From assembly GCF_024502345.1 (NCBI RefSeq), contig NZ_JALDNN010000001.1: a DNA stretch of 64,000 nucleotides, one strand, 5' to 3'. This document shows positions 22,754 through 60,169 of the stretch, piece after piece; position 1 is the first letter of the stretch; each line of letters begins with the position of its first letter. The stretch is from Escherichia coli. GTDB taxonomy: Bacteria; Pseudomonadota; Gammaproteobacteria; Enterobacterales; Enterobacteriaceae. The notes below the pieces were generated by a model. That model did not search any database. It worked only from the letters and a program-made list of their open reading frames with translations, and was not told the origin of the DNA. Both the position numbers and the translations under genes were made by a program.

Positions 22754-23947
22754 TCAAATCTGTCGTAACTGCGCCTCAACATACAAATAGCCAATCCCCA
22801 ACACCTGTTGTGCGCGGCTTAATTGCCCAAAGCCAATTTGCGTTGCTTTCACGCTCGGCCCTTCGTCGCGGTCGAACGGGTTAAATCCCGTCTGGCGAAT
22901 AATGGTATTAAGCCAGTGCTCACCAAAGGCACAACTGCGACCGTACAACCAAATCTGATTAATATTGAGGATGTTGAGGAAGTTATACAGACTCAAACCA
23001 ATGGCATTGGCACTGCGATCAACCCAGCTGGTGATCCACGGTTCTCCACTCTGCCAGGCAGCGATTAACTGCGCGGTTGTCAGTTTTTCAGGATCAAGCT
23101 GAGTATTAACCGGTTGTGATTTTAGCCATACCCGCGCCTGTTTTTTTAATGCACTTAACGAGGCGACGGTTTCCAGGCAGCCGTAACGTCCACAGTCGCA
23201 GACGACGCCATCCGGATTAACGATGGTGTGACCAATCTGTCCGCTACCATACAAACTGCCGCGATAAATTTGCTCGTTAATCACGAACGACGAGCCAATG
23301 CCGTAATCAACGTTGATCACGCAGAAATCCCGTTCCTGCGAATTATTTTGCCATTTCTCCGCCAGCGCCAGCATCACGCAGTCATTATCGACCATCACCC
23401 GAATGCCCAGCTTCTCTTCCAGCAGATACTTCACCTCAACCGGCGTTGTCCACGGCGCTTGCGGCATGGTTTGCGACACGCCGGTCACCGGATCAACCTG
23501 ACCGTGGATTGCCAGCGCCAGATTGATGGTGCGGTCCGGCCACAATTTACGGTGGCGATGCCAGCATTTTTCGATTTCGGACAGCAGCGCCTGCGGCGTC
23601 GGTGCATCAATCTGTAAATACTCAAATTCACCTTTCGGACTTAAACAAGCATTAGCAACCTGACACTCAATACTGGTGGGCGTCACGTTCAGGCACAGCG
23701 TCCAGTCACCTTCCGGCGCAATCAGCCATGTACCGCTACTATGCCCGCGCGTCTGGCTTTCATCGTCGATATTCACCACCCGTTTTTCGCTTTCCAGTTC
23801 CTGCAAAATATTACTGACTGCCGGAATCGAAATTTGCGCCAGCCGGGCCAGCGTTGATTTATTGGCGCGCTTTTGCCGGTACAGCAGTTCCAGAATCACG
23901 CATTTGTTATGGTGGCGAATCTGTTGATTGTTAATGCAGGCTCTCAT
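22754..23947 (-). CDS. yphH: ROK (NagC/XylR)-family transcriptional regulator YphH
   Basis: 397 aa from ATG 23947; N-terminal HTH and ROK sugar-kinase-like fold with CxCGxxGC zinc motif. Confidence 0.85.
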   Translation of the reverse strand: MRACINNQQIRHHNKCVILELLYRQKRANKSTLARLAQISIPAVSNILQELESEKRVVNIDDESQTRGHSSGTWLIAPEGDWTLCLNVTPTSIECQVANACLSPKGEFEYLQIDAPTPQALLSEIEKCWHRHRKLWPDRTINLALAIHGQVDPVTGVSQTMPQAPWTTPVEVKYLLEEKLGIRVMVDNDCVMLALAEKWQNNSQERDFCVINVDYGIGSSFVINEQIYRGSLYGSGQIGHTIVNPDGVVCDCGRYGCLETVASLSALKKQARVWLKSQPVNTQLDPEKLTTAQLIAAWQSGEPWITSWVDRSANAIGLSLYNFLNILNINQIWLYGRSCAFGEHWLNTIIRQTGFNPFDRDEGPSVKATQIGFGQLSRAQQVLGIGYLYVEAQLRQI

Positions 23948-24064
23948 CTTCACTAAACCTTGTTTAGTTAATTGCGTGATTATTCCGCGAAAACATTGCC
24001 AGATTGTTCAATACACTGCCACAAATCTTTTAATTCAGTATGTCTTGTTAATATTGAGGGCACC

Positions 24065-27000
24065 ATGACTCCAGTAAAAGTGTGGCAAGAGCGCGTTGAG
24101 ATCCCGACCTATGAAACCGGGCCGCAGGATATACATCCCATGTTCCTGGAAAATCGCGTTTATCAGGGATCGTCCGGCGCGGTTTATCCCTACGGCGTGA
24201 CCGATACGCTGAGCGAGCAGAAAACCCCGAAATCCTGGCAGGCGGTGTGGCTGGAAAACGACTACATCAAAGTGATGATCCTGCCGGAACTGGGCGGTCG
24301 GGTGCATCGCGCATGGGATAAAGTGAAACAACGCGATTTTGTCTATCACAATGAAGTCATTAAACCTGCGCTGGTGGGGCTGCTGGGACCGTGGATCTCT
24401 GGCGGGATTGAGTTTAACTGGCCGCAACACCATCGCCCGACCACCTTTATGCCCGTTGATTTCACCCTCGAAGCCCATGAAGACGGCGCACAGACGGTGT
24501 GGGTCGGCGAAACGGAGCCGATGCACGGTTTACAGGTGATGACAGGTTTCACCCTGCGCCCTGACCGGGCGGCGCTGGAAATCGCCAGCCGCGTCTATAA
24601 CGGCAACGCCACGCCGCGTCATTTCTTGTGGTGGGCCAACCCGGCAGTGAAAGGGGGGGAAGGGCATCAGAGCGTTTTCCCGCCGGATGTGACTGCGGTG
24701 TTTGATCACGGCAAACGGGCCGTCTCCGCTTTCCCCATCGCCACCGGCACTTACTACAAAGTGGACTACTCCGCTGGAGTGGACATTTCTCGCTATAAAA
24801 ATGTGCCCGTTCCAACCTCATATATGGCCGAAAAATCGCAGTACGATTTTGTTGGCGCGTGGTGTCACGATGAAGATGGCGGTTTGCTACACGTTGCCAA
24901 CCACCATATTGCGCCAGGTAAAAAGCAGTGGAGCTGGGGACACAGTGAATTTGGCCAGGCGTGGGATAAGAGCCTAACTGATAATAACGGCCCGTATATC
25001 GAACTGATGACCGGTATTTTTGCCGATAACCAGCCCGATTTTACCTGGCTTGATGCTTACGAAGAGAAGCGTTTTGAGCAGTATTTCCTGCCTTATCATT
25101 CTTTGGGCATGGTGCAAAATGCCTCCCGCGATGCGGTGATAAAACTCCAGCGTAGTGAGCGGGGGATTGAGTGGGGGCTGTATGCCATCTCTCCGTTGAA
25201 CGGATACCGCCTGGCGATCCGCGAAATCGGCAAATGCAACGCGTTACTTGATGATGCCGTGGCACTGATGCCTGCGACCGCCATCCAGGGCGTGTTGCAC
25301 GGTATCAATCCTGAAAGGCTGACCATTGAGCTCTCCGATGCCGACGGCAATATTGTACTGAGTTATCAGGAACATCAGCCGCAAGAGTTGCCGTTGCCGG
25401 ACGTCGCCAAAGCGCCACTGGCAGCACAAGACATTACCAGTACAGATGAAGCCTGGTTTATCGGTCAGCATCTGGAGCAATATCATCACGCCAGCCGTTC
25501 ACCGTTCGATTACTACCTGCGCGGCGTGGCGCTGGATCCGCTGGATTACCGCTGTAACCTGGCGCTGGCGATGCTGGAATATAACCGCGCAGATTTCCCG
25601 CAAGCGGTGGCGTATGCCACTCAGGCTCTGAAACGCGCACATGGGCTGAACAAAAATCCGCAGTGCGGACAGGCGAGTTTGATTCGCGCCAGTGCTTACG
25701 AACGTCAGGGACAATATCAACAAGCCGAAGAGGATTTCTGGCGTGCGGTCTGGAGCGGCAACAGTAAAGCCGGAGGCTATTATGGTCTGGCACGACTGGC
25801 GGCGCGTAATGGTAACTTCGACGCGGGTCTGGATTTTTGCCAACAAAGTCTTCGCGCCAGCCCAACCAATCAGGAAGTGCTTTGCCTGCATAATCTGCTG
25901 CTGGTGTTAAGTGGTCGTCAGGACAACGCGCGTTTGCAGCGCGAGAAACTGCTGCGCGATTATCCGCTGAACGCCACTCTGTGGTGGCTGAACTGGTTCG
26001 ATGGTCGTAGCGAATCAGCTCTCGCGCAGTGGCGCGGTCTGTGTCAGGGACGCGACGTTAACGCCCTGATGACCGCCGGGCAACTGATTAACTGGGGAAT
26101 GCCCACCCTGGCGGCAGAGATGCTGAACGCACTGGACTGCCAGCGCACGCTGCCGCTTTACCTGCAAGCCAGCTTGCTGCCGAAAGCCGAACGTGGCGAA
26201 CTGGTCGCAAAAGCCATTGATGTCTTTCCGCAGTTTGTCCGTTTCCCGAATACGCTGGAAGAAGTGGCGGCGCTGGAGAGTATTGAAGAGTGCTGGTTTG
26301 CTCGCCATTTACTGGCCTGCTTCTACTACAACAAACGTAGCTACAACAAAGCCATTGCCTTATGGCAACGTTGCGTAGAGATGTCGCCGGAGTTTGCCGA
26401 CGGCTGGCGCGGGTTAGCGATCCATGCGTGGAATAAGCAACACGATTATGAGCTGGCCGCGCGTTATCTTGATAATGCTTATCAGCTTGCGCCGCAGGAT
26501 GCACGTCTGCTTTTCGAACGGGATTTGCTTGATAAGTTAAGTGGAGCCACACCGGAGAAACGACTGGCGCGTCTGGAAAATAATCTGGAAATTGCGCTGA
26601 AACGCGACGACATGACCGCAGAACTGCTCAATTTATGGCATCTCACGGGGCAGGCAGACAAAGCGGCGGACATTCTCGCCACGCGCAAATTCCACCCGTG
26701 GGAAGGCGGGGAAGGGAAGGTCACCAGTCAGTTTATCCTCAACCAGTTATTACGCGCCTGGCAGCATCTTGATGCCAGACAGCCGCAGCAGGCCAGCGAA
26801 CTGCTTCATGCCGCGCTGCATTATCCGGAGAATTTAAGCGAAGGCCGTTTACCGGGGCAAACTGATAACGACATCTGGTTCTGGCAGGCGATATGCGCCA
26901 ACGCGCAGGGCGATGAAACTGAAGCGACGCGTTGTTTACGTCTGGCGGTGACCGGCGATCGCACCATTAACATCCACAGTTATTACAACGATCAGCCGGT

Positions 27001-27346
27001 TGATTATCTCTTCTGGCAAGGAATGGCGCTGCGACTGCTGGGCGAACAACACACCGCACAGCAACTGTTTAGTGAAATGAAACAGTGGGCGCAAGAGATG
27101 GCGAAAACCAGTATTGAGGCGGATTTCTTTGCTGTTTCACAACCTGATCTGTTGTCGCTGTATGGCGATTTACAACAGCAGCATAAAGAAAAATGCCTGA
27201 TGGTGGCGATGCTGGCGTCCGCGGGACTCGGGGAGGTTGCGCAATATGAGTCTGCTCGCGCTGAATTGACGGCGATTAATCCGGCCTGGCCGAAAGCGGC
27301 ATTATTCACCACCGTGATGCCTTTTATTTTTAACCGCGTTCACTAA
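24065..27346 (+). CDS. yphG: Large TPR-repeat protein YphG (function unknown)
   Basis: Start set at ATG 24065 (MTPVKVWQERVEIPTYE, 1093 aa); multiple TPR-like repeats in the C-terminal half. Confidence 0.85.
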   Translation: MTPVKVWQERVEIPTYETGPQDIHPMFLENRVYQGSSGAVYPYGVTDTLSEQKTPKSWQAVWLENDYIKVMILPELGGRVHRAWDKVKQRDFVYHNEVIKPALVGLLGPWISGGIEFNWPQHHRPTTFMPVDFTLEAHEDGAQTVWVGETEPMHGLQVMTGFTLRPDRAALEIASRVYNGNATPRHFLWWANPAVKGGEGHQSVFPPDVTAVFDHGKRAVSAFPIATGTYYKVDYSAGVDISRYKNVPVPTSYMAEKSQYDFVGAWCHDEDGGLLHVANHHIAPGKKQWSWGHSEFGQAWDKSLTDNNGPYIELMTGIFADNQPDFTWLDAYEEKRFEQYFLPYHSLGMVQNASRDAVIKLQRSERGIEWGLYAISPLNGYRLAIREIGKCNALLDDAVALMPATAIQGVLHGINPERLTIELSDADGNIVLSYQEHQPQELPLPDVAKAPLAAQDITSTDEAWFIGQHLEQYHHASRSPFDYYLRGVALDPLDYRCNLALAMLEYNRADFPQAVAYATQALKRAHGLNKNPQCGQASLIRASAYERQGQYQQAEEDFWRAVWSGNSKAGGYYGLARLAARNGNFDAGLDFCQQSLRASPTNQEVLCLHNLLLVLSGRQDNARLQREKLLRDYPLNATLWWLNWFDGRSESALAQWRGLCQGRDVNALMTAGQLINWGMPTLAAEMLNALDCQRTLPLYLQASLLPKAERGELVAKAIDVFPQFVRFPNTLEEVAALESIEECWFARHLLACFYYNKRSYNKAIALWQRCVEMSPEFADGWRGLAIHAWNKQHDYELAARYLDNAYQLAPQDARLLFERDLLDKLSGATPEKRLARLENNLEIALKRDDMTAELLNLWHLTGQADKAADILATRKFHPWEGGEGKVTSQFILNQLLRAWQHLDARQPQQASELLHAALHYPENLSEGRLPGQTDNDIWFWQAICANAQGDETEATRCLRLAVTGDRTINIHSYYNDQPVDYLFWQGMALRLLGEQHTAQQLFSEMKQWAQEMAKTSIEADFFAVSQPDLLSLYGDLQQQHKEKCLMVAMLASAGLGEVAQYESARAELTAINPAWPKAALFTTVMPFIFNRVH

Positions 27347-27722
27347 ATCTTATTAACTGTAATATTTGAGCGGCACGCGCTGCCGCTCATCACAAAATAA
27401 TTAGAATAAGCCGTTGTAAATAAAAACCCTACAGGAGGCACTATGCCTAAAAAAATGAGAACAACCCGTAATTTATTATTAATGGCTACGCTATTGGGTA
27501 GCGCACTATTTGCCAACGCTGCGGATAAAGAAATGACCATTGGCGCAATATACCTTGATACCCAGGGATATTACGCTGGAGTGCGTCAGGGCGTTCAGGA
27601 TGCGGCAAAAGATTCTTCAGTACAGGTACAGTTAATTGAAACTAACGCCCAGGGTGATATTTCGAAAGAAAGTACCTTTGTTGATACCCTCGTGGCGCGT
27701 AATGTCGATGCCATTATTTTAT

Positions 27723-27731
27723 CGGCAGTGT
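27723..27731. repeat. Target-site duplication, left copy (CGGCAGTGT)
   Basis: Identical 9-mer immediately flanks both IS ends. Confidence 0.9.
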
Positions 27732-28788
27732 GGCTTTGTTGAATAAATCGAACTTTTGCTGAGTTGAAGGATCAGATCACGTATCTTCCCGACAACGCAG
27801 ACCGTTCCGTGGCAAAGCAAAAGTTCAAAATCACCAACTGGCCCACCTACAATAAAGCCCTCATCAACCGTGGCTCCATAACTTTCTGGCTGGATGATGA
27901 AGCTATTCAGGCCTGGTATGAGTCAGCAACACCTTCTTCACGAGGCAGACCTCAGCGCTATTCTGACCTTGCCATCACGACTGTGCTGGTCATTAAACGC
28001 GTATTCAGGCTGACCCTGCGCGCTGCGCAGGGCTTTATTGATTCCATTTTTTCTCTGATGAACGTTCCGCTACGCTGCCCGGATTACAGCTGTGTCAGCA
28101 GGCGGGCAAAGTCGGTTAATGTCAGTTTCAAAACGCCCACCCGGGGTGAAATCGCACACCTGGTAATTGATTCCACCGGGCTGAAGGTCTTCGGTGAAGG
28201 CGAGTGGAAAGTCAAAAAGCATGGCCAGGAACGCCGCCGTATCTGGCGTAAGCTGCATCTCGCCGTTGACAGTAAAACACATGAAATCATCTGCGCTGAC
28301 CTGTCGCTGAACAACGTTACGGACTCAGAGGCCTTCCCCGGGTTAATCCGGCAAACCCACCGGAAAATCAGGTCAGCCGCCGCCGATGGCGCTTACGATA
28401 CCCGGCTATGTCACGATGAACTGCGGCGTAAGAAAATCAGCGCGCTTATCCCTCCCCGAAAAGGTGCGGGTTACTGGCCCGGTGAATATGCAGACCGTAA
28501 CCGTGCAGTGGCTAATCAGCGAATGACCGGGAGTAATGCGCGGTGGAAATGGACAACAGATTACAACCGTCGCTCGATAGCGGAAACGGCGATGTACCGG
28601 GTAAAACAGCTGTTCGGGGGTTCACTGACACTGCGTGACTACGATGGTCAGGTTGCAGAGGCTATGGCCCTGGTACGAGCGCTGAACAAAATGACGAAAG
28701 CAGGTATGCCTGAAAGCGTGCGTATTGCCTGAAAACACAACCCGCTACGGGGGAGACTTACCCGAAATCTGATTTATTCAACAAAGCC
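27732..28788 (+). mobile_element. IS903-group insertion sequence (IS5 family), 1057 bp
   Basis: 18-bp perfect terminal inverted repeats ggctttgttgaataaatc at 27732-27749 and reverse-complemented at 28771-28788; single DDE transposase ORF; flanked by 9-bp direct repeats. Confidence 0.9.
27809..28732 (+). CDS. IS903-type transposase
   Basis: Frame open from 27764; GTG at 27809 gives 307 aa, matching the remembered IS903 transposase length; true start codon uncertain. Confidence 0.8.
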   Translation: MAKQKFKITNWPTYNKALINRGSITFWLDDEAIQAWYESATPSSRGRPQRYSDLAITTVLVIKRVFRLTLRAAQGFIDSIFSLMNVPLRCPDYSCVSRRAKSVNVSFKTPTRGEIAHLVIDSTGLKVFGEGEWKVKKHGQERRRIWRKLHLAVDSKTHEIICADLSLNNVTDSEAFPGLIRQTHRKIRSAAADGAYDTRLCHDELRRKKISALIPPRKGAGYWPGEYADRNRAVANQRMTGSNARWKWTTDYNRRSIAETAMYRVKQLFGGSLTLRDYDGQVAEAMALVRALNKMTKAGMPESVRIA

Positions 28789-28797
28789 CGGCAGTGT
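28789..28797. repeat. Target-site duplication, right copy (CGGCAGTGT)
   Basis: Identical to 27723-27731. Confidence 0.9.
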
Positions 28798-29514
28798 CTG
28801 AAAATGGCAGTAGCCGTACCGTTCGTCGCGCCAGTGAAGCGGGTATTCCGGTGATTTGCTACAACACCTGTATTAATCAAAAGGGGGTCGATAAATATGT
28901 CTCGGCGTATCTGGTCGGCGATCCGCTGGAATTTGGTAAAAAACTGGGTAACGCTGCCGCCGATTATTTTATTGCCAATAAAATTGACCAGCCGAAAATT
29001 GCCGTCATCAATTGCGAAGCCTTTGAAGTTTGTGTGCAGCGACGTAAAGGATTTGAAGAAGTATTAAAATCCCGCGTTCCCGGCGCGCAAATTGTCGCTA
29101 ATCAGGAAGGGACTGTTTTAGATAAAGCGATTTCCGTTGGTGAAAAACTGATTATCTCCACGCCGGATCTCAACGCCATTATGGGGGAGTCGGGCGGTGC
29201 GACACTCGGCGCGGTAAAAGCGGTACGTAATCAAAATCAGGCCGGAAAAATTGCTGTTTTCGGTTCGGATATGACAACCGAAATTGCTCAGGAGCTGGAA
29301 AACAATCAGGTGCTGAAAGCGGTAGTGGATATTTCCGGTAAGAAAATGGGCAATGCTGTTTTCGCGCAAACATTGAAGGTTATCAATAAACAAGCCGACG
29401 GTGAAAAAGTGATTCAGGTGCCAATCGATCTCTATACCAAAACGGAAGATGGTAAACAGTGGCTGGCAACGCACGTTGATGGTCTGCCCTAATCGCTGAT
29501 TCGCAGAGGTCCCT

Positions 29515-31026
29515 ATGTTCACGGCAACAGAGGCAGTCCCGGTAGCAAAAGTGGTGGCAGGAAATAAGCGTTACCCCGGCGTCGTTGCGCTGGATAACGT
29601 TAACTTCACGCTCAATAAAGGCGAAGTTCGTGCGCTGTTAGGTAAAAACGGCGCGGGCAAATCGACTCTCATTCGAATGCTTACCGGCAGCGAACGCCCG
29701 GATAGCGGTGATATCTGGATTGGCGAGACGCGACTGGAAGGTGACGAAGCTACGTTGACTCGCCGTGCCGCTGAACTGGGGGTTCGTGCGGTTTATCAGG
29801 AGTTAAGTCTGGTGGAGGGACTGACGGTGGCGGAAAACCTCTGCCTCGGTCAGTGGCCCCGCCGCAACGGCATGATTGATTACCTGCAAATGGCGCAGGA
29901 TGCCCAACGTTGCTTACAGGCGCTGGGCGTTGACGTTAGCCCTGAACAACTTGTTTCAACGCTAAGCCCGGCGCAAAAGCAACTGGTGGAAATTGCGCGG
30001 GTGATGAAGGGCGAGCCGCGCGTGGTCATTCTTGATGAACCTACCAGTTCGCTTGCCAGTGCGGAAGTTGAACTGGTGATCAGCGCGGTGAAAAAGATGT
30101 CGGCACTGGGCGTGGCGGTAATTTATGTCAGCCACCGGATGGAAGAAATTCGCCGCATTGCCTCCTGTGCCACTGTTATGCGCGATGGTCAGGTGGCGGG
30201 CGATGTGATGCTCGAAAACACCTCCACGCATCATATTGTGTCGCTAATGCTAGGGCGTGATCACGTTGATATTGCGCCGGTAGCCCCTCAGGAAATTGTG
30301 GATCAGGCCGTGCTGGAAGTCCGTGCATTACGCCATAAGCCCAAGCTGGAGGATATCAGCTTTACGTTACGTCGCGGCGAAGTGCTTGGCATTGCTGGCC
30401 TGCTGGGGGCAGGGCGCAGTGAATTGCTGAAGGCGATTGTTGGGCTGGAGACGTATGAACAGGGCGAAATTGTTATCAACGGCGAGAAAATCACGCGCCC
30501 CGATTACGGCGACATGCTGAAACGCGGCATTGGCTATACGCCAGAAAACCGCAAAGAAGTGGGGATCATTCCCTGGTTGGGCGTTGACGAAAATACAGTG
30601 CTGACCAATCGGCAAAAAATCAGCGCCAACGGAGTGCTGCAATGGTCCACCATCCGCCGCCTGACCGAAGAGGTGATGCAGCGGATGACGGTCAAGGCCG
30701 CCAGTAGCGAAACGCCCATCGGCACGCTTTCTGGTGGCAATCAGCAAAAAGTGGTGATCGGTCGTTGGGTCTATGCCGCCAGCCAGATTTTGTTGCTCGA
30801 CGAGCCAACGCGCGGCGTCGATATCGAAGCCAAACAGCAGATTTACCGTATTGTCCGTGAGCTGGCTGCCGAAGGAAAAAGCGTGGTGTTTATCTCCAGT
30901 GAAGTGGAGGAGTTGCCGCTGGTGTGCGACCGCATCCTGTTGTTACAGCACGGTACGTTCTCGCAGGAGTTTCACTCGCCGGTCAATGTGGATGAGCTGA
31001 TGTCCGCCATTCTGTCTGTGCACTGA
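29515..31026 (+). CDS. yphE: Sugar ABC transporter ATP-binding protein (duplicated ATPase domains)
   Basis: 503 aa; two Walker A/ABC signature (LSGGNQQK) modules typical of ribose/xylose-type importer ATPases. Confidence 0.9.
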   Translation: MFTATEAVPVAKVVAGNKRYPGVVALDNVNFTLNKGEVRALLGKNGAGKSTLIRMLTGSERPDSGDIWIGETRLEGDEATLTRRAAELGVRAVYQELSLVEGLTVAENLCLGQWPRRNGMIDYLQMAQDAQRCLQALGVDVSPEQLVSTLSPAQKQLVEIARVMKGEPRVVILDEPTSSLASAEVELVISAVKKMSALGVAVIYVSHRMEEIRRIASCATVMRDGQVAGDVMLENTSTHHIVSLMLGRDHVDIAPVAPQEIVDQAVLEVRALRHKPKLEDISFTLRRGEVLGIAGLLGAGRSELLKAIVGLETYEQGEIVINGEKITRPDYGDMLKRGIGYTPENRKEVGIIPWLGVDENTVLTNRQKISANGVLQWSTIRRLTEEVMQRMTVKAASSETPIGTLSGGNQQKVVIGRWVYAASQILLLDEPTRGVDIEAKQQIYRIVRELAAEGKSVVFISSEVEELPLVCDRILLLQHGTFSQEFHSPVNVDELMSAILSVH

Positions 31027-31050
31027 TGAATTTTACCGAGGAACCTGAAG

Positions 31051-32049
31051 ATGTCTGCTTCGTCATTATCATTGCCGCAGGGCAAGAGCGTCTCGCTCAA
31101 ACAATTTGTCAGTCGCCATATTAATGAGATCGGTTTGCTGGTGGTAATCGCCATTCTTTATCTGGTCTTCTCCCTGAACGCGCCTGGCTTTATCTCATTG
31201 AATAACCAGATGAACGTGCTGCGCGATGCCGCCACCATTGGGATTGCCGCCTGGGCGATGACGCTGATTATTATCTCCGGTGAAATTGATGTCAGCGTTG
31301 GGCCGATGGTGGCTTTTGTCTCGGTGTGCCTGGCATTTTTGCTGCAATTTGAAGTTCCGCTGGCGGTGGCGTGTCTGCTGGTGTTGCTGTTAGGCGCGCT
31401 GATGGGAACGCTCGCCGGGGTGCTGCGCGGCGTGTTTAACGTACCAAGTTTCGTTGCCACACTGGGGCTGTGGAGCGCCCTGCGCGGAATGGGGCTGTTT
31501 ATGACCAACGCACTGCCAGTGCCGATTGACGAAAACGAGGTGCTGGACTGGCTGGGCGGACAATTTCTCGGTGTGCCAGTATCCGCGCTGATCATGATGG
31601 TGTTGTTTGCGCTGTTTGTGTTCATTAGCCGAAAAACCGCCTTCGGGCGCTCGGTTTTTGCCGTTGGCGGTAATGCCACGGCGGCGCAGTTGTGCGGTAT
31701 TAACGTTCGTCGGGTGCGCATTCTTATCTTTACCCTTTCGGGATTATTAGCGGCGGTGACCGGCATTTTGCTGGCGGCACGCCTCGGTTCCGGTAACGCA
31801 GGTGCCGCAAACGGTCTGGAGTTTGACGTCATCGCTGCGGTCGTGGTCGGCGGTACGGCACTTTCCGGCGGTCGCGGTTCCCTGTTCGGTACATTGCTTG
31901 GTGTGCTGGTGATTACGCTAATCGGTAACGGTCTGGTGCTGCTCGGTATTAACTCCTTTTTCCAGCAGGTGGTACGCGGCGTCATCATCGTGGTGGCGGT
32001 GCTGGCGAATATCTTGCTGACCCAGCGAAGCAGTAAAGCGAAACGCTAA
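31051..32049 (+). CDS. yphD: Sugar ABC transporter permease
   Basis: 332 aa, multi-span hydrophobic protein of RbsC/AraH type. Confidence 0.9.
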   Translation: MSASSLSLPQGKSVSLKQFVSRHINEIGLLVVIAILYLVFSLNAPGFISLNNQMNVLRDAATIGIAAWAMTLIIISGEIDVSVGPMVAFVSVCLAFLLQFEVPLAVACLLVLLLGALMGTLAGVLRGVFNVPSFVATLGLWSALRGMGLFMTNALPVPIDENEVLDWLGGQFLGVPVSALIMMVLFALFVFISRKTAFGRSVFAVGGNATAAQLCGINVRRVRILIFTLSGLLAAVTGILLAARLGSGNAGAANGLEFDVIAAVVVGGTALSGGRGSLFGTLLGVLVITLIGNGLVLLGINSFFQQVVRGVIIVVAVLANILLTQRSSKAKR

Positions 32050-32114
32050 ACCTTAACGCCCCTGGCGCGGGTGCGGCAGGGATGAAAATTAATCGTATTG
32101 TTAATGAGGGATTT

Positions 32115-33176
32115 ATGAAAACGATGCTGGCAGCTTATTTACCAGGAAATTCAACCGTCGATCTGCGGGAAGTTGCGGTGCCGACGCCGGGGATTAACCA
32201 GGTACTGATCAAAATGAAATCCTCCGGGATTTGCGGAAGCGATGTCCACTATATCTATCATCAACACCGTGCCACGGCGGCGGCACCCGATAAACCGTTA
32301 TACCAGGGATTTATCAACGGTCATGAACCGTGCGGGCAGATTGTGGCGATGGGGCAAGGCTGCCGCCATTTTAAAGAGGGCGACCGCGTGCTGGTGTATC
32401 ACATTTCTGGCTGTGGTTTTTGCCCGAACTGCCGCCGCGGCTTTCCTATCTCTTGTACTGGCAAAGGAAAAGCGGCTTACGGCTGGCAGCGTGACGGCGG
32501 TCATGCCGAATATCTGCTGGCGGAAGAAAAAGATCTGATCCTCCTGCCGGATGCGCTGAGCTACGAAGATGGTGCGTTTATCAGTTGCGGCGTTGGCACG
32601 GCCTATGAAGGGATTTTGCGCGGCGAAGTTTCCGGCAGCGATAACGTGCTGGTGGTCGGTCTGGGGCCGGTCGGCATGATGGCGATGATGCTGGCGAAAG
32701 GTCGCGGTGCAAAACGGATCATCGGCGTTGATATGCTGCCGGAACGTCTGGCGATGGCAAAACAGTTAGGGGTGATGGATCACGGCTATTTAGCAACCAC
32801 CGAAGGTCTGCCGCAGATTATCGCCGAACTCACCCACGGTGGCGCGGATGTTGCGCTCGATTGTTCTGGTAATGCCGCAGGTCGCTTGCTGGCACTGCAA
32901 TCCACCGCTGACTGGGGACGGGTGGTTTACATTGGTGAAACCGGAAAAGTGGAATTCGAGGTCAGCGCCGATCTGATGCACCATCAACGGCGGATTATCG
33001 GCTCCTGGGTGACCAGTCTGTTCCATATGGAAAAATGCGCCCACGATTTGACTGACTGGAAGCTGTGGCCGCGTAACGCCATTACCCATCGCTTCTCGCT
33101 GGAACAGGCAGGTGATGCCTATGCGCTGATGGCGAGCGGCAAATGCGGGAAAGTTGTGATTAACTTCCCGGATTAA
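32115..33176 (+). CDS. yphC: Zinc-dependent alcohol/polyol dehydrogenase
   Basis: Start set at ATG 32115 (MKTMLAAY..., 353 aa); GHEPCG zinc motif and GLGPVG NAD-binding motif. Confidence 0.85.
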   Translation: MKTMLAAYLPGNSTVDLREVAVPTPGINQVLIKMKSSGICGSDVHYIYHQHRATAAAPDKPLYQGFINGHEPCGQIVAMGQGCRHFKEGDRVLVYHISGCGFCPNCRRGFPISCTGKGKAAYGWQRDGGHAEYLLAEEKDLILLPDALSYEDGAFISCGVGTAYEGILRGEVSGSDNVLVVGLGPVGMMAMMLAKGRGAKRIIGVDMLPERLAMAKQLGVMDHGYLATTEGLPQIIAELTHGGADVALDCSGNAAGRLLALQSTADWGRVVYIGETGKVEFEVSADLMHHQRRIIGSWVTSLFHMEKCAHDLTDWKLWPRNAITHRFSLEQAGDAYALMASGKCGKVVINFPD

Positions 33177-33187
33177 GGAGTTAGCGG

Positions 33188-34060
33188 ATGACCATCTATA
33201 CCTTATCCCACGGGTCGCTAAAGCTGGACGTTTCTGACCAGGGCGGCGTAATCGAAGGCTTCTGGCGCGATACGACGCCGCTCTTACGTCCTGGTAAAAA
33301 AAGCGGTGTGGCAACCGATGCCTCATGTTTTCCGCTGGTGCCATTTGCAAACCGGGTGAGCGGCAACCGTTTTGTCTGGCAGGGGCGTGAGTATCAACTG
33401 CAACCGAATGTTGAGTGGGATGCGCACTATCTACACGGCGATGGCTGGCTGGGCGAGTGGCAATGTGTCTCGCACAGCGATGATAGTTTGTGTCTGGTGT
33501 ATGAACATCGCAGCGGTGTCTATCACTATCGGGTAAGTCAGGCGTTTCATTTAACGGCGGATACGCTGACGGTGACGCTCTCTGTCACCAATCAAGGAGC
33601 AGAGACGCTGCCATTTGGTACCGGCTGGCATCCTTATTTTCCGTTGTCACCACAAACGCGGATTCAGGCGTAGGCGAGCGGTTACTGGCTGGAACGGGAG
33701 CAGTGGCTGGCGGGTGAGTTTTGCGAGCAGCTACCGCAGGAACTGGATTTTAACCAGCTCGCGCCGTTGCCGCGCCAGTGGGTGAACAATGGTTTTGCCG
33801 GATGGAATGGTCAGGCCCGCATCGAGCAGCCGCAGGAAGGTTATGCCATCATCATGGAAACGACGCCACCTGCACCGTGTTATTTCATCTTTGTTTCCGA
33901 CCCTGCGTTTGATAAAGGATATGCGTTTGATTTCTTCTGTCTGGAACCGATGAGCCATGCGCCGGATGATCATCATCGCCCGGAAGGGGGTGATCTCATT
34001 GCGCTAGCACCAGGGGAATCAACAACTTCAGAGATGTCGTTGCGGGTAGAGTGGCTGTAA
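33188..34060 (+). pseudogene. yphB: yphB (aldose 1-epimerase family) interrupted by in-frame amber codon
   Basis: Single frame 33188-34060 (290 codons) broken only by TAG at 33671-33673; both segments (161 aa and downstream) read as one mutarotase-like protein. Confidence 0.8.
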
Positions 34061-34069
34061 TTTATTAAA

Positions 34070-34101
34070 TGCCGGATAAGGCGTTCACGCCGCATCCGGC
34101 A
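34070..34101. repeat. REP element
   Basis: tgccggataaggcgttcacgccgcatccggca palindromic unit between convergent yphB and yphA. Confidence 0.6.
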
Positions 34102-34107
34102 TCTTTC

Positions 34108-34530
34108 CTAACGCCGATCGAGAGAAATTGCCCCCGGCCCGGTAATTGCCAATAGCAAGAACGCGCCAGCGATACTGACATTCTTCCAGAAATTAATCAT
34201 ATTTGGCCCAACCGCATCGCCGGTCATATCCCAGTAATGGTGACCAATCACCGCCGTACCCAGCGTGTAGAAAATAAACAGCACTGCCAGCGGACGGGTG
34301 AAAAAGCCAAGCACGATTAATATCGCGGCGGGCACTTCCATAACTACCGCAATAATCGCTGCCAGCATCGGCATTGGCGCGCCCAACGAGGCCATATATT
34401 GGACCGTACCGTCAAAGCCCATCATTTTGGGAAAACCAAAAATAATGAAAATTAAGACCACGGCGATACGGGCAATTAATAACAAAACGGGGCGGGCAGC
34501 TCCAAAATCAAAATAACGTAGTGTGTTCAT
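34108..34530 (-). CDS. yphA: DoxX-family inner membrane protein YphA
   Basis: Start set at ATG 34530 (MNTLRYFDF..., 140 aa); four hydrophobic segments. Confidence 0.85.
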
Positions 34531-53697: not shown

Positions 53698-53823
53698 TTA
53701 CCTGCTGTTCTGAAGGTTGTTAACCACCAGTAAATTGTTGCCGGAGAGACTCAGGTTATTATTTACCTCGGTTAACAGCGCACCAGAAACAATAAGTACG
53801 ATACAAAAGCACCGTATCTTCAT
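53698..53823 (-). CDS. Candidate small hydrophobic protein (41 aa), TimP-like type I toxin
   Basis: ATG at 53823 (minus) to TAA 53700-53698; translation MKIRCFCIVLIVSGALLTEVNNNLSLSGNNLLVVNNLQNSR; basic N-terminus then hydrophobic stretch; weak GGA SD; in-frame upstream ATG at 53835 also possible. Confidence 0.4.
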   Translation of the reverse strand: MKIRCFCIVLIVSGALLTEVNNNLSLSGNNLLVVNNLQNSR

Positions 53824-55210: not shown

Positions 55211-58200
55211 ATGAAAAAGTTACGCGTAGCCGCCTGCATGCTAATGCTGGCGCTGGCAGGGTGCGACAACAACGATAACGCGCCAACAGCGGTGAAAAAA
55301 GATGCGCCTTCTGAAGTTACTAAAGCGGCCTCTTCAGAAAACGCGAGTTCAGCAAAACTCTCCGCGCCAGAGCGACAAAAACTGGCACAACAGAGTGCCG
55401 GTAAGGCGCTGACATTGCTGGATCTCTCTGAAGTCCAACTTGATGGTGCAGCCACGCTGGTGCTGACGTTCTCCATCCCTCTCGACCCGGATCAGGATTT
55501 CTCACGCGTTATTCATGTCGTCGATAAAAAAAGCGGCAAAGTGGATGGTGCCTGGGAGCTATCAGATAATCTTAAAGAGCTGCGTTTACGCCACCTCGAA
55601 CCGAAACGTGATTTGATCGTTACTATTGGCAAGGAGGTCAAAGCACTCAACAACGCAACCTTCAGTAAAGATTACGAAAAAACTATAACTACCCGCGACA
55701 TCCAACCCAGCGTCGGTTTTGCCAGCCGTGGTTCGCTGCTGCCTGGTAAAGTCGTTGAAGGGCTGCCGGTAATGGCGCTCAACGTTAATAATGTCGATGT
55801 TAACTTCTTCCGCGTTAAGCCAGAATCTCTGCCAGCATTCATTAGCCAATGGGAATACCGCAATTCGCTGGCGAACTGGCAGTCAGACAAACTGCTGCAG
55901 ATGGCGGATCTGGTCTACACCGGACGGTTTGATCTCAATCCTGCGCGTAACACCCGTGAAAAATTATTGCTGCCGCTGGGCGATATCAAACCGCTTCAGC
56001 AGGCGGGCGTGTATCTGGCTGTGATGAATCAGGCTGGACGTTACGATTACAGTAATCCCGCGACGCTGTTTACGTTAAGTGATATCGGCGTTTCAGCTCA
56101 CCGTTATCACAATCGTCTGGATATCTTTACCCAAAGTCTGGAAAACGGCGCGGCCCAGCAAGGAATTGAAGTCTCTTTATTAAATGAGAAAGGGCAGACT
56201 CTGACTCAGGCAACCAGTGACGCTCAGGGGCATGTGCAGCTGGAAAATGATAAAAATGCGGCATTACTGCTGGCACGTAAAGACGGTCAGACAACGCTAC
56301 TCGATTTAAAACTTCCGGCGCTGGACTTAGCAGAATTTAACATTGCTGGCGCGCCAGGCTATAGCAAACAGTTTTTCATGTTTGGCCCGCGCGATCTTTA
56401 TCGCCCGGGTGAAACGGTCATCCTCAATGGTTTGCTGCGTGATGCAGACGGTAAAGCGTTGCCCGATCAACCCATCAAGTTAGACGTGATTAAACCCGAC
56501 GGGCAGGTTCTCAGGAGCGTCGTTAGTCAGCCGGAGAATGGCCTCTACCACTTAACCTGGCCACTCGATAGCAATGCGGCAACCGGTATGTGGCATATCC
56601 GAGCCAACACTGGGGATAACCAATATCGGATGTGGGATTTCCACGTCGAAGATTTTATGCCGGAGCGCATGGCGTTGAATCTGACCGGCGAGAAAACGCC
56701 ATTAACGCCAAAAGATGAAGTGAAATTCTCGGTGGTGGGGTACTACCTGTACGGTGCACCTGCTAATGGTAATACCTTGCAGGGACAGCTTTTCCTGCGG
56801 CCGCTGCGTGAAGCGGTTTCTGCATTGCCTGGTTTTGAATTCGGCGATATAGCTGCCGAAAACCTTTCCCGCACGCTGGATGAAGTTCAGTTGACGCTGG
56901 ATGATAAAGGGCGCGGCGAAGTTTCTACAGAAAGCCAGTGGAAGGAAACGCATTCCCCATTGCAGGTTATTTTCCAGGGCAGTTTGCTGGAATCGGGCGG
57001 TCGCCCGGTGACGCGCCGCGCTGAGCAGGCTATCTGGCCTGCCGATGCATTGCCGGGGATCCGTCCGCAGTTCGCCTCGAAATCGGTTTACGATTATCGT
57101 ACTGACAGCACGGTGAAACAGCCCATTGTTGATGAAGGCAGTAACGCCGCTTTTGACATCGTTTATAGCGATGCGCAAGGCGTGAAAAAAGCCGTGTCGG
57201 GCTTGCAGGTGCGCCTGATTCGCGAACGCCGCGATTACTACTGGAACTGGTCAGAAGATGAAGGCTGGCAGTCACAGTTTGATCAAAAAGATCTGATCGA
57301 AAATGAACAAACTCTGGATCTGAAAGCGGACGAAACCGGCAAGGTCAGTTTTCCGGTAGAGTGGGGCGCTTATCGTCTGGAAGTCAAAGCGCCGAATGAA
57401 GCGGTCAGTAGTGTTCGTTTCTGGGCTGGCTATAGCTGGCAGGACAACAGCGACGGTAGCGGCGCAGTGCGACCCGACCGTGTCACGCTGAAACTGGATA
57501 AAGCCAGTTATCGCCCTGGCGACACCATTAAGTTGCATATCGCCGCGCCAACGGCGGGTAAAGGTTATGCGATGGTCGAGTCCAGTGAAGGGCCGCTGTG
57601 GTGGCAAGAGATTGATGTTCGGGCTCAAGGGCTGGATCTGACGATTCCGGTCGATAAAACCTGGAATCGTCATGATCTGTATTTAAGTACGCTGGTGGTA
57701 CGTCCTGGCGATAAATCTCGCTCCGCGACGCCAAAACGCGCGGTTGGTGTGTTGCATCTGCCGCTTGGCGATGAAAACCGTCGCCTCGATCTGGCGCTGG
57801 AAACACCAGCAAAAATGCGTCCCAATCAACCATTAACCGTGAAAATTAAAGCCAGCACTAAAAATGGCGAGAAGCCTAAACAGGTGAATGTGCTGGTGTC
57901 TGCCGTTGATAGTGGTGTGCTGAATATTACTGACTACGTCACGCCAGATCCGTGGCAGGCGTTCTTTGGTCAGAAACGCTATGGCGCAGACATTTACGAT
58001 ATTTACGGTCAGGTTATTGAAGGTCAGGGGCGTCTGGCAGCTCTGCGTTTCGGTGGCGATGGTGATGAGCTGAAACGTGGTGGTAAACCGCCGGTCAATC
58101 ACGTCAATATTGTCGCGCAGCAGGCGCTGCCGGTAACGCTCAACGAACAGGGCGAAGGCTCGGTTACACTGCCGATTGGCGATTTTAACGGTGAATTGCG

Positions 58201-60169
58201 CGTCATGGCGCAAGCCTGGACGGCAGATGATTTCGGTAGCAACGAAAGCAAAGTGATAGTTGCCGCACCGGTGATTGCTGAACTGAACATGCCGCGCTTT
58301 ATGGCGAGTGGCGATACCTCGCGTCTGACGCTGGATATCACTAATCTTACCGATAAACCGCAAAAACTGAACGTTGCCCTGACCGCCAGTGGTTTGCTTG
58401 AACTGGTCAGCGATTCACCCGCAGCCGTTGAATTAGCGCCAGGTGTGCGTACTACGCTGTTTATCCCGGTGCGAGCATTGCCGGGTTATGGCGATGGAGA
58501 AATTCAGGCCACCATTAGCGGGTTAGCGTTACCGGGTGAAACCGTTGCCGATCAGCATAAGCAGTGGAAAATCGGCGTCCGTCCGGCGTTCCCGGCACAA
58601 ACGGTTAATTACGGTACGGCGTTACAGCCTGGTGAGACATGGGCGATTCCGGCGGATGGATTGCAAAACTTCTCGCCTGTTACGCTGGAAGGGCAATTGT
58701 TGTTGAGCGGCAAACCACCGCTGAACATTGCACGTTATATCAAAGAGTTAAAAGCGTATCCGTACGGCTGTCTTGAGCAAACCGCCAGCGGCCTGTTCCC
58801 GTCACTTTATACCAACGCAGCCCAACTGCAGGCGTTGGGCATCAAAGGCGACAGTGATGAGAAACGCCGTGCATCGGTCGATATCGGCATTTCCCGTTTG
58901 CTGCAAATGCAACGTGATAACGGCGGCTTTGCGCTGTGGGATAAAAACGGTGACGAAGAGTACTGGCTGACGGCTTACGTGCTGGATTTCCTGGTCCGCG
59001 CAGGCGAACAGGGTTACAGCGTGCCGACAGACGCCATTAACCGGGGTAATGAGCGTCTGCTGCGCTATTTACAAGATCCGGGCATGATGTCGATCCCGTA
59101 CGCGGATAATCTCAAAGCCAGTAAATTCGCCGTACAGTCTTACGCTGCGCTGGTGCTGGCCCGTCAGCAAAAAGCACCACTGGGTGCGCTGCGTGAAATC
59201 TGGGAGCATCGTGCAGATGCCGCTTCTGGTTTACCGCTGCTGCAACTTGGCGTTGCGCTGAAAACCATGGGTGATGCGACGCGTGGTGAAGAATCGATTG
59301 CGCTGGCGCTGAAAACGCCGCGTAATGATGAGCTGAAATGGCTGGGTGATTACGGTAGCCCACTGCGCGACAACGCGTTAATGCTCTCCTTGCTGGAAGA
59401 AAATAAACTGCTACCCGATGAGCAGAACACTTTGCTGAACACGCTTTCGCAGCAGGCATTTGGTGAACGCTGGCTATCGACGCAGGAAAGTAACGCGTTG
59501 TTCCTGGCTGCCCGTACGATTCAGGATTTACCGGGTAAATGGCAGGCGCAAACCTCTTTCTCAGCTGAGCCGCTGACAGGCGAGAAAACGCTAAACAGCA
59601 ATCTGAATAGCGATCAACTTGCCACCTTGCAGGTGAGAAACAGTGGCGATCAGCCGTTATGGCTGCGTGTGGATGCCAGCGGTTATCCGCAATCCGCACC
59701 TTTACCGGCGAACAATGTGCTGCAAATCGAGCGTCATATTCTTGGTACTGATGGTAAGAGCAAATCGCTGGACTCGTTACGTAGCGGCGATCTGGTGCTG
59801 GTCTGGTTGCAGGTAAAAGCCAGTAACAGCGTGCCGGATGCGTTAGTCGTGGATCTGCTGCCTGCGGGTCTGGAACTGGAAAACCAGAATCTGGCGAACG
59901 GTAGCGCCAGCCTGGAGCAAAGTGGTGGCGAAGTGCAGAACTTACTGAACCAGATGCAGCAGGCGAGTATTAAGCACATTGAGTTCCGTGACGATCGCTT
60001 TGTGGCGGCGGTTGCCGTTGATGAATACCAACCGGTAACGCTGGTGTATCTGGCGCGGGCGGTGACGCCGGGAACGTATCAGGTACCGCAACCGATGGTG
60101 GAATCAATGTATGTTCCCCAATGGCGGGCGACCGGCGCGGCTGAAGATTTGCTGATTGTCAGACCGTAA
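55211..60169 (+). CDS. yfhM: Alpha-2-macroglobulin family lipoprotein (ECAM)
   Basis: 1652-aa ORF; lipobox LALAGC at N-terminus; thioester motif CLEQ (GCLEQTA) and MG domains. Confidence 0.9.
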   Translation: MKKLRVAACMLMLALAGCDNNDNAPTAVKKDAPSEVTKAASSENASSAKLSAPERQKLAQQSAGKALTLLDLSEVQLDGAATLVLTFSIPLDPDQDFSRVIHVVDKKSGKVDGAWELSDNLKELRLRHLEPKRDLIVTIGKEVKALNNATFSKDYEKTITTRDIQPSVGFASRGSLLPGKVVEGLPVMALNVNNVDVNFFRVKPESLPAFISQWEYRNSLANWQSDKLLQMADLVYTGRFDLNPARNTREKLLLPLGDIKPLQQAGVYLAVMNQAGRYDYSNPATLFTLSDIGVSAHRYHNRLDIFTQSLENGAAQQGIEVSLLNEKGQTLTQATSDAQGHVQLENDKNAALLLARKDGQTTLLDLKLPALDLAEFNIAGAPGYSKQFFMFGPRDLYRPGETVILNGLLRDADGKALPDQPIKLDVIKPDGQVLRSVVSQPENGLYHLTWPLDSNAATGMWHIRANTGDNQYRMWDFHVEDFMPERMALNLTGEKTPLTPKDEVKFSVVGYYLYGAPANGNTLQGQLFLRPLREAVSALPGFEFGDIAAENLSRTLDEVQLTLDDKGRGEVSTESQWKETHSPLQVIFQGSLLESGGRPVTRRAEQAIWPADALPGIRPQFASKSVYDYRTDSTVKQPIVDEGSNAAFDIVYSDAQGVKKAVSGLQVRLIRERRDYYWNWSEDEGWQSQFDQKDLIENEQTLDLKADETGKVSFPVEWGAYRLEVKAPNEAVSSVRFWAGYSWQDNSDGSGAVRPDRVTLKLDKASYRPGDTIKLHIAAPTAGKGYAMVESSEGPLWWQEIDVRAQGLDLTIPVDKTWNRHDLYLSTLVVRPGDKSRSATPKRAVGVLHLPLGDENRRLDLALETPAKMRPNQPLTVKIKASTKNGEKPKQVNVLVSAVDSGVLNITDYVTPDPWQAFFGQKRYGADIYDIYGQVIEGQGRLAALRFGGDGDELKRGGKPPVNHVNIVAQQALPVTLNEQGEGSVTLPIGDFNGELRVMAQAWTADDFGSNESKVIVAAPVIAELNMPRFMASGDTSRLTLDITNLTDKPQKLNVALTASGLLELVSDSPAAVELAPGVRTTLFIPVRALPGYGDGEIQATISGLALPGETVADQHKQWKIGVRPAFPAQTVNYGTALQPGETWAIPADGLQNFSPVTLEGQLLLSGKPPLNIARYIKELKAYPYGCLEQTASGLFPSLYTNAAQLQALGIKGDSDEKRRASVDIGISRLLQMQRDNGGFALWDKNGDEEYWLTAYVLDFLVRAGEQGYSVPTDAINRGNERLLRYLQDPGMMSIPYADNLKASKFAVQSYAALVLARQQKAPLGALREIWEHRADAASGLPLLQLGVALKTMGDATRGEESIALALKTPRNDELKWLGDYGSPLRDNALMLSLLEENKLLPDEQNTLLNTLSQQAFGERWLSTQESNALFLAARTIQDLPGKWQAQTSFSAEPLTGEKTLNSNLNSDQLATLQVRNSGDQPLWLRVDASGYPQSAPLPANNVLQIERHILGTDGKSKSLDSLRSGDLVLVWLQVKASNSVPDALVVDLLPAGLELENQNLANGSASLEQSGGEVQNLLNQMQQASIKHIEFRDDRFVAAVAVDEYQPVTLVYLARAVTPGTYQVPQPMVESMYVPQWRATGAAEDLLIVRP

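Follow-up and report, generated by a model that had tools for sequence, protein, structure and literature searches.

How does an operon that nearly all members of a species retain come to be broken twice in a single isolate? The question is raised by the yph cluster of an Escherichia coli isolate (assembly GCF_024502345.1), which lies in a 64,000-nucleotide stretch of contig NZ_JALDNN010000001.1 that we refer to as the window. An open reading frame (ORF) map together with blastn identified positions 22754-34530 of the window as the E. coli K-12 locus yphH / yphGFEDCB / yphA, with glyA and hcaD on either side. The position, gene order, orientation and gene lengths are like those of K-12, which has neither of the two lesions that we describe here: the insertion sequence (IS) IS903B in yphF, and an amber codon in place of Gln162 of yphB (Q162*). 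We consider it probable that the known yph locus is seen here early in pseudogenisation, with the amber mutation arising first, IS903B following, and the second hit being tolerated after the first. The features that carry this reading are as follows.

27443-27731, plus strand: yphF 5' fragment, encoding the signal peptide and residues up to 96 of a 327-aa periplasmic binding protein
27723-27731 (left) and 28789-28797 (right): target-duplication copies CGGCAGTGT, 9 bp each, direct
27732-28788, plus strand: IS903B (IS903 group, IS5 family), 1057 bp, with its transposase ORF at 27764-28732 in the orientation of the operon
28798-29492, plus strand: yphF 3' fragment, residues 97-327, without the signal peptide
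33188-34060, plus strand: yphB, aldose-1-epimerase-family gene of 290 codons, broken by an in-frame amber codon
33671-33673, plus strand: the yphB amber TAG, in frame (CAG in relatives, Gln162)

The 1057-bp element splits yphF after nucleotide 289 (codon 97). It ends in perfect 18-bp inverted repeats, GGCTTTGTTGAATAAATC, with 0 mismatches (2 matches against a chance expectation of 0.04), and is bounded on both sides by the direct 9-bp repeat CGGCAGTGT. Five related loci that are without this IS (L001-L005) carry a single copy of CGGCAGTGT and so represent the empty site. Because a target duplication with single-copy empty sites is the signature of transposition, the insertion is taken to be real and not a mis-assembly. 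The transposase is an IS5-family DDE enzyme (NF033579 at 357 bits against a cut-off of 140), and the length, the 18-bp inverted repeats, the 9-bp duplication and the single 322-codon transposase ORF all match IS903B. IS903B is a plasmid-borne element that is common in Enterobacteriaceae, and the copy in the window has 100% nucleotide identity with copies annotated as IS903B, both chromosomal and plasmid-borne, in Klebsiella, Escherichia, Salmonella and Citrobacter. Relative to those copies the element itself is unchanged, and what is new is the insertion site alone, at yphF codon 97. The truncated YphF retains 96 of its 327 residues, with the reading frame running three codons into IS903B to a stop at 27742. 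An exact look-up of the resulting 99-aa YphF::IS fusion product found none on record, and the junction between IS903B and yphF is absent from 5,426 complete E. coli genomes. The insertion is a recent one that was seen in this isolate alone.

An IS903B copy also occurs near the yph locus in E. coli 23AR0151 (L022), an unrelated clinical isolate, where it interrupts hmp, two genes upstream of yph. We considered this genome as a second yph cluster with an insertion and rejected it, since its IS903B sits in hmp and its yph genes are intact.

The second lesion is a C to T transition that turns yphB codon 162 into TAG, where intact relatives have CAG. The predicted product of 161 aa loses 22 residues that are invariant among YphB homologues of E. 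coli, Klebsiella, Serratia, Aeromonas and Limnobaculum, including a C251-x-E253-P254 plus H257 motif that, by analogy with galactose mutarotase, would hold the catalytic glutamate. The preliminary description of this locus placed an amber codon in its last gene. The amber is real and lies in yphB, the last of the co-directional genes yphGFEDCB, and not in yphA, the last gene that was listed, which is intact. The same TAG is found in independent isolate and metagenome assemblies from different projects, on at least 10 contigs beyond the clone-mates described below, and many contigs from gut metagenomes and isolates share both the TAG and the haplotype. A 161-aa YphB product occurs on 83 contigs of the protein collection, compared with at least 1,000 for one intact allele, and a search on either common flanking haplotype found TAG at this codon in 0 of the 5,426 complete E. 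coli genomes.

Several further points about this codon were examined. The only missense change 3' of the stop is P191L, which was rejected as a sign of decay following the stop because an intact relative (L002) has the same leucine. A Dcm hot spot was rejected as the origin of the transition, since the context is GCGCAGG or GCACAGG and not CCWGG, and an apparent 161-aa YphB from L017 was rejected as an amber allele since that contig ends after "CA". Separately, positions 3455-3515 of L016 (Logan ERR9384523; equivalent to window 33642-33702) carry the same Q162* on a different yphB allele, reading GCA-TAG where the window reads GCG-TAG. This allele differs in its flanks, 1 nt upstream and 23 nt downstream, lies two nucleotides away from the allele of E. 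coli ET670, and most likely reflects an independent recurrence of the nonsense mutation.

Could the two lesions instead be errors, with IS903B placed in yphF by a mis-join and the TAG produced by a base-calling mistake? The preliminary description had named assembly or sequencing artefacts as the outcome that would overturn it. The exact 9-bp duplication, for which relatives have a single-copy empty site, speaks against the first error and a TAG that recurs in independent assemblies from different projects speaks against the second, making an artefact vanishingly improbable. The statements of the preliminary description that the first transporter gene is disrupted by an IS and that two lesions lie in one locus are thus borne out, and both are loss-of-function mutations.

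The order of the two events can be read from clone-mates of the isolate. A contig of GCA_050022275.1 that encodes an identical YphG aligns with the window at 100.000% identity along stretches of 11,667 and 7,624 nt; it carries the TAG together with an intact yphF and no IS, and GCA_001484235.1 is in the same state. As these clone-mates have the TAG but an intact yphF, the amber came first and IS903B later. In a close relative with an identical YphE (L031) codon 162 is still CAG. The first step was therefore the appearance of the amber in a minor E. coli lineage, and the second was the transposition of IS903B, with its 9-bp duplication, into yphF codon 97 in this isolate only.

A third member of the clone, GCA_050023715.1 (L034, JBAOMP010000006.1), is 100% identical to the window over 5,254 nt from yphF to yphA, TAG included. 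Positions 1-130 of this contig are an IS1 end that abuts yphF nucleotide 765 (window 29273), with a single junction seen. We read this junction as a second, independent IS hit on yphF in the same clone.

Two hits on the same gene in otherwise identical amber isolates could mean that loss of the binding protein was positively selected. Without YphB, uptake through YphFED would then be harmful, for example through accumulation of an intermediate that cannot be processed, much as galactose is toxic in gal mutants. The positions of the insertions, IS903B at nucleotide 289 and IS1 at nucleotide 765 in isolates that do not otherwise differ over the sequenced stretch, favor this idea, as does the finding set out below that yphB and yphG are the pair that does not vary in the module from one genus to another, which suggests a central catalytic step. 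Most of the amber carriers seen (among them L003, L004 and L026-L030), however, have an intact yphF, which implies that the amber alone is tolerated, and since only one side of the IS1 junction is seen it could instead reflect a rearrangement. We regard selected loss as very unlikely. Were it true, YphG and YphB, conserved together from Aeromonas to E. coli, would carry out a previously unrecognised sugar conversion that passes through a toxic intermediate, and suppressor genetics could find the substrate.

A simpler explanation is coincidence under drift, in which yph is conditionally dispensable throughout E. coli and the two lesions are unrelated, slightly deleterious events in a small clone that will be purged, leaving the locus as such unchanged. 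The rarity of the amber allele and the strong purifying selection on the cluster across the species are what would be expected from this, and sporadic single lesions also occur elsewhere, such as the IS903-like element (93.9% identical to that of the window) in yphE of the complete genome of E. coli ET670 (L001). In a deep collection independent knock-outs of any non-essential gene are to be expected. Against coincidence, the independent IS1 lies in the same 984-bp yphF of a clone-mate with zero single-nucleotide polymorphisms over 5.2 kb, and several unrelated lineages have two or three yph lesions, not one. On balance we think that coincidence is somewhat unlikely.

A 232-aa C-terminal YphF fragment turns up in 73 blocks of the collection, the reason being that various 1-nt deletions in yphF occur in other lineages. 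Early deletions of four kinds were identified, at about nucleotides 70, 226, 231 and 256, in six loci (L035-L040) from Logan SRR33896516, SRR19450129, SRR2187221 and SRR2187192 and from GCA_015673325.1 and GCA_015672855.1. Additional lesions accompany them: L035 combines a yphF 1-nt deletion with yphF L93* and a 1-nt frameshift deletion in yphE, L038 and L039 combine a yphF 1-nt deletion with yphC Q64*, and a shortened yphG is also among the extra lesions of this set. The complete genome of E. coli 2013C-4974 (L023) has an IS3-family element in yphD as well as an annotated frameshift in yphG. An apparent truncation of yphD in L010 was rejected, as it is a scaffold gap of N's. Multiple hits of this kind would be expected of an operon that works as a unit and is no longer of value once one of its components is gone. 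The pattern also resembles the stepwise pseudogenisation of E. coli catabolic operons, in which several independent lesions (nonsense mutations, 1-nt deletions and insertion sequences) accumulate next to intact neighbors.

Early pseudogenisation can be set out as a series of steps. With yphF split, the importer would be left without its binding protein, as family knowledge suggests, and by the same token the truncated YphB would be without the C-terminal half that bears the conserved Glu/His motif. An importer without a binding protein and a truncated YphB would together leave the pathway dead even though six of the eight genes are intact. The first hit would remove the selective value of the remaining operon, so that a second could be tolerated. 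IS903B may in addition be polar on yphEDCB.

To better understand the selection acting on the cluster we examined its conservation across the species and its divergence from K-12. Counting the cluster as present where a single place in the genome holds 80% or more of the query, yph is present in 5,367 of the 5,426 complete E. coli genomes (98.9%). The ratio of nonsynonymous to synonymous differences per site (pN/pS), from Nei-Gojobori counts between the window and K-12, is 0.053 over the eight yph genes, from 157 synonymous and 27 nonsynonymous differences, and 0.045 over the 44 flanking genes that were scored, from 393 and 57, with no significant difference between the two (Fisher p = 0.52). 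Relative to the closest intact complete genome the yph ratio is 0.098. YphG of the window, which is identical to WP_060659609.1 of E. coli, has no change at any position that is invariant in an alignment of 30 family members, and the other yph genes have no further stop or length change compared with K-12. There is thus no signature of long relaxed selection in the surviving sequence of this locus, and what decay there is amounts to the two knock-outs. Species-wide the yph cluster is not decaying; the knock-out is recent and most E. coli are intact. The idea of relaxed selection in this lineage, put forward in the preliminary description, therefore stands in part: the sequential lesions, the IS1 in a clone-mate and the multi-lesion clusters elsewhere fit it and support it indirectly, while pN/pS, the invariant residues of YphG and the near-universal presence of the cluster do not.

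Several observations weigh against the stepwise loss that we favor. The surviving yph genes have no excess of amino acid changes. Changes private to the yph genes of the amber haplotype number four nonsynonymous and four synonymous (binomial p ~0.02 against the long-term ratio), tiny numbers drawn from contigs some of which are metagenomic, and an excess of nonsynonymous changes is usual in very recent polymorphism. A scan for promoters and terminators around IS903B gave counts at chance level and no support for polarity. Read-through or suppression of the amber is possible. The multi-hit pattern is no proof either, since in a very deep collection independent nulls of any dispensable gene are expected. 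Finally, relaxed constraint is inferred from only two events in this genome, too few to tell it apart from chance or selection for loss.

The genes around the cluster are intact. In blastn of the K-12 MG1655 genes against the window, all 64 kb keep the K-12 order from lepA to rlmN. Each yph gene has 97.7-99.8% nucleotide identity to its K-12 counterpart with gene order and orientation unchanged, and gene lengths equal those of K-12 once the IS and one copy of the target duplication are removed. The 52 other K-12 genes compared that lie wholly inside the window have no stops and no length change, except for 3 nt in yfhM. Unlike a genome undergoing general decay, the window holds one IS and no broken gene beyond yph. 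Over the yph block, and likewise over 24 kb of flanking sequence, identity to complete E. coli genomes does not exceed 99.0%. This distance led us to consider a Shigella origin, which is unlikely given the single IS, the lack of any further pseudogene in the window and the E. coli label that the proteins have at NCBI. The divergence from K-12 is a mosaic, with hcaF, hcaC and iscX 100% identical, pdxJ at 95.6% and yfhL at 93.9%. The lineage seems to be unrepresented among complete genomes, and the region is recombinant.

What is being lost? Judged by its sequence the locus is the known but still uncharacterised E. coli yph cluster, with nothing novel in its make-up, and the gene list and coordinates first drawn up for positions 22754-34530 proved right when checked against the ORFs and K-12. 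The genes that remain intact are as follows.

22754-23947, minus strand: yphH, divergent ROK-family regulator, 397 aa, intact; 97.7% nucleotide identity to b2550 with no gaps or stops; PF00480
24065-27346, plus strand: yphG, 1093 aa, cytoplasmic, DUF5107 plus TPR, intact; 98.2% nucleotide identity to b2549
29515-31026, plus strand: yphE, double ATP-binding cassette (ABC) ATPase, 503 aa, intact
31051-32049, plus strand: yphD, CUT2-type permease, 332 aa, intact
32115-33176, plus strand: yphC, Zn-dependent medium-chain dehydrogenase, 353 aa, intact; an alternative start at 32082 would give 364 aa
34108-34530, minus strand: yphA, DoxX-family membrane protein, 140 aa, intact; protein identical to K-12 YphA

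The K-12 counterparts of yphH, yphG and yphA are b2550, b2549 and b2543 respectively. Pfam families were read from the identical genes on a clone-mate contig; from yphH to yphA they are ROK, DUF5107 with TPR, Peripla_BP_4, two ABC_tran domains, BPD_transp_2, ADH_N/ADH_zinc_N, Aldose_epim and DoxX.

The transporter resembles those of the CUT2 "ribose-type" operons (rbsACB, alsBAC, araFGH, xylFGH and ytfQRT-yjfF) in having a Peripla_BP_4 protein, a fused double ATPase and a BPD_transp_2 permease. The yph operon additionally encodes the DUF5107/TPR protein. All three YphFED components fall below every NCBIfam equivalog cut-off, which cover ribose, allose, arabinose, xylose, galactose, galactofuranose and autoinducer-2. 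YphF scores 64 of 335 bits against AlsB and YphE 454 of 689 against AraG, with XylG, AlsA and RbsA also below cut-off for YphE. YphH has a ROK domain (PF00480) and scores 112 of 650 bits with the NagC model and 109 of 530 with that of Mlc, scores by which it is not an equivalog of either. The best named matches of YphC are threonine, scyllo-inosose, xylitol and sorbitol dehydrogenases, all below equivalog cut-offs. YphB belongs to PF01263 (Aldose_epim) and reaches 40 of 251 bits with the NCBIfam aldose-1-epimerase equivalog; the K-12 protein is PDB entry 3nre ("aldose 1-epimerase").

For YphG we obtained an AlphaFold2 model from an alignment of 68 diverse homologues, having discarded an earlier run with 30 close homologues in which the predicted local distance difference test (pLDDT) score of the N-terminal domain was below 50. 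The final model has a pLDDT of 94.9 and a predicted template modeling (TM) score of 0.93. In the model residues 1 to ~440 are all-beta (DUF5107) and residues ~460-1093 form a TPR-like superhelix. A Foldseek search with YphG matched 5cd6, a structural-genomics entry, at E 5e-24. The N-terminal domain matched the galactose mutarotases 3mwx (E 5e-9) and 4bze (E 1.6e-8), both with a TM of 0.60, as well as 3k25 (TM 0.68), and the helical part matched superhelices of the OGT-type TPR. From these model-based matches the DUF5107 domain is predicted to have the mutarotase beta-sandwich fold. The N-terminal domain also contains a cluster of nearly invariant His, Glu, Asp and Lys residues. Compared with GalM-type mutarotases, YphB is a member at the sequence level, while YphG would share the fold only and is fused to ~630 residues of TPR helices; the family profiles of YphG and YphB show no similarity to one another (hhalign probability 0.1%, E 0.58).

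The YphG family comprises 3,934 representatives at 50% clustering. Its gene neighborhoods in Klebsiella, Serratia, Aeromonas and Limnobaculum share a conserved core of a divergent ROK gene, a DUF5107/TPR gene, an Aldose_epim gene and a sugar transporter. Klebsiella has the E. coli arrangement of the yph genes. In the Aeromonas, Serratia and Limnobaculum loci (L018, L019 and L021) a porter of the major facilitator superfamily replaces the ABC importer and there is no Zn-dehydrogenase. A DoxX gene lies near the YphG-YphB pair in Klebsiella and Limnobaculum. More distant YphG homologues adjoin a PfkB kinase or sit in a Firmicute-type sugar ABC locus.

These relationships suggest a scheme in which YphH would repress the operon until a sugar appears, and YphFED would import that sugar. 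Cytoplasmic YphG, in which TPR helices would serve as the scaffold for a mutarotase-fold domain, and YphB of the mutarotase family may then convert it, and YphC could oxidise or reduce the product. The statement in the preliminary description that neither the substrate nor the role of YphG is established agrees with the K-12 annotation, in which all eight yph genes are still "putative", and with a literature search on yph function, DUF5107 and yphFED. The search returned no functional study; what it returned were annotations, levoglucosan proteomics and a Klebsiella polymerase chain reaction marker. That literature calls YphH an uncharacterised protein and the third ROK repressor of E. coli (PMC4288165), places yphFED among putative sugar transporters (PMC10305011) and reports induction of YphF in the levoglucosan proteomics study (PMC8753852).

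As a finding, the strain-level loss of a known sugar operon by two ordinary types of mutation matters little. What modest value it has lies in a natural experiment with an E. coli operon of unknown function, in which yphB-null clones with and without an intact importer can be compared. The search for the substrate is narrowed by the multi-hit decay of the operon as a unit, by the invariance of the YphG-YphB pair while the transporter and dehydrogenase vary, and by the predicted mutarotase fold of DUF5107. Two modest leads emerge, the parallel IS hits on yphF in a yphB-null clone and the conserved partnership of YphG and YphB.

Some minor features of the window were also recorded. The spacer between yphG and yphF contains a G+C-rich 8-bp hairpin at 27368-27388 (GAGCGGCA-CGCGC-TGCCGCTC), which lies 22 nt past the yphG stop and is not followed by a T-run. 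The length difference in yfhM (55211-60169), an alpha-2-macroglobulin gene, is a 3-nt in-frame difference from K-12 that keeps the frame open. The gene timP (53698-53823), which encodes a small toxic protein, has four differences from K-12, all of them nonsynonymous (0 synonymous).

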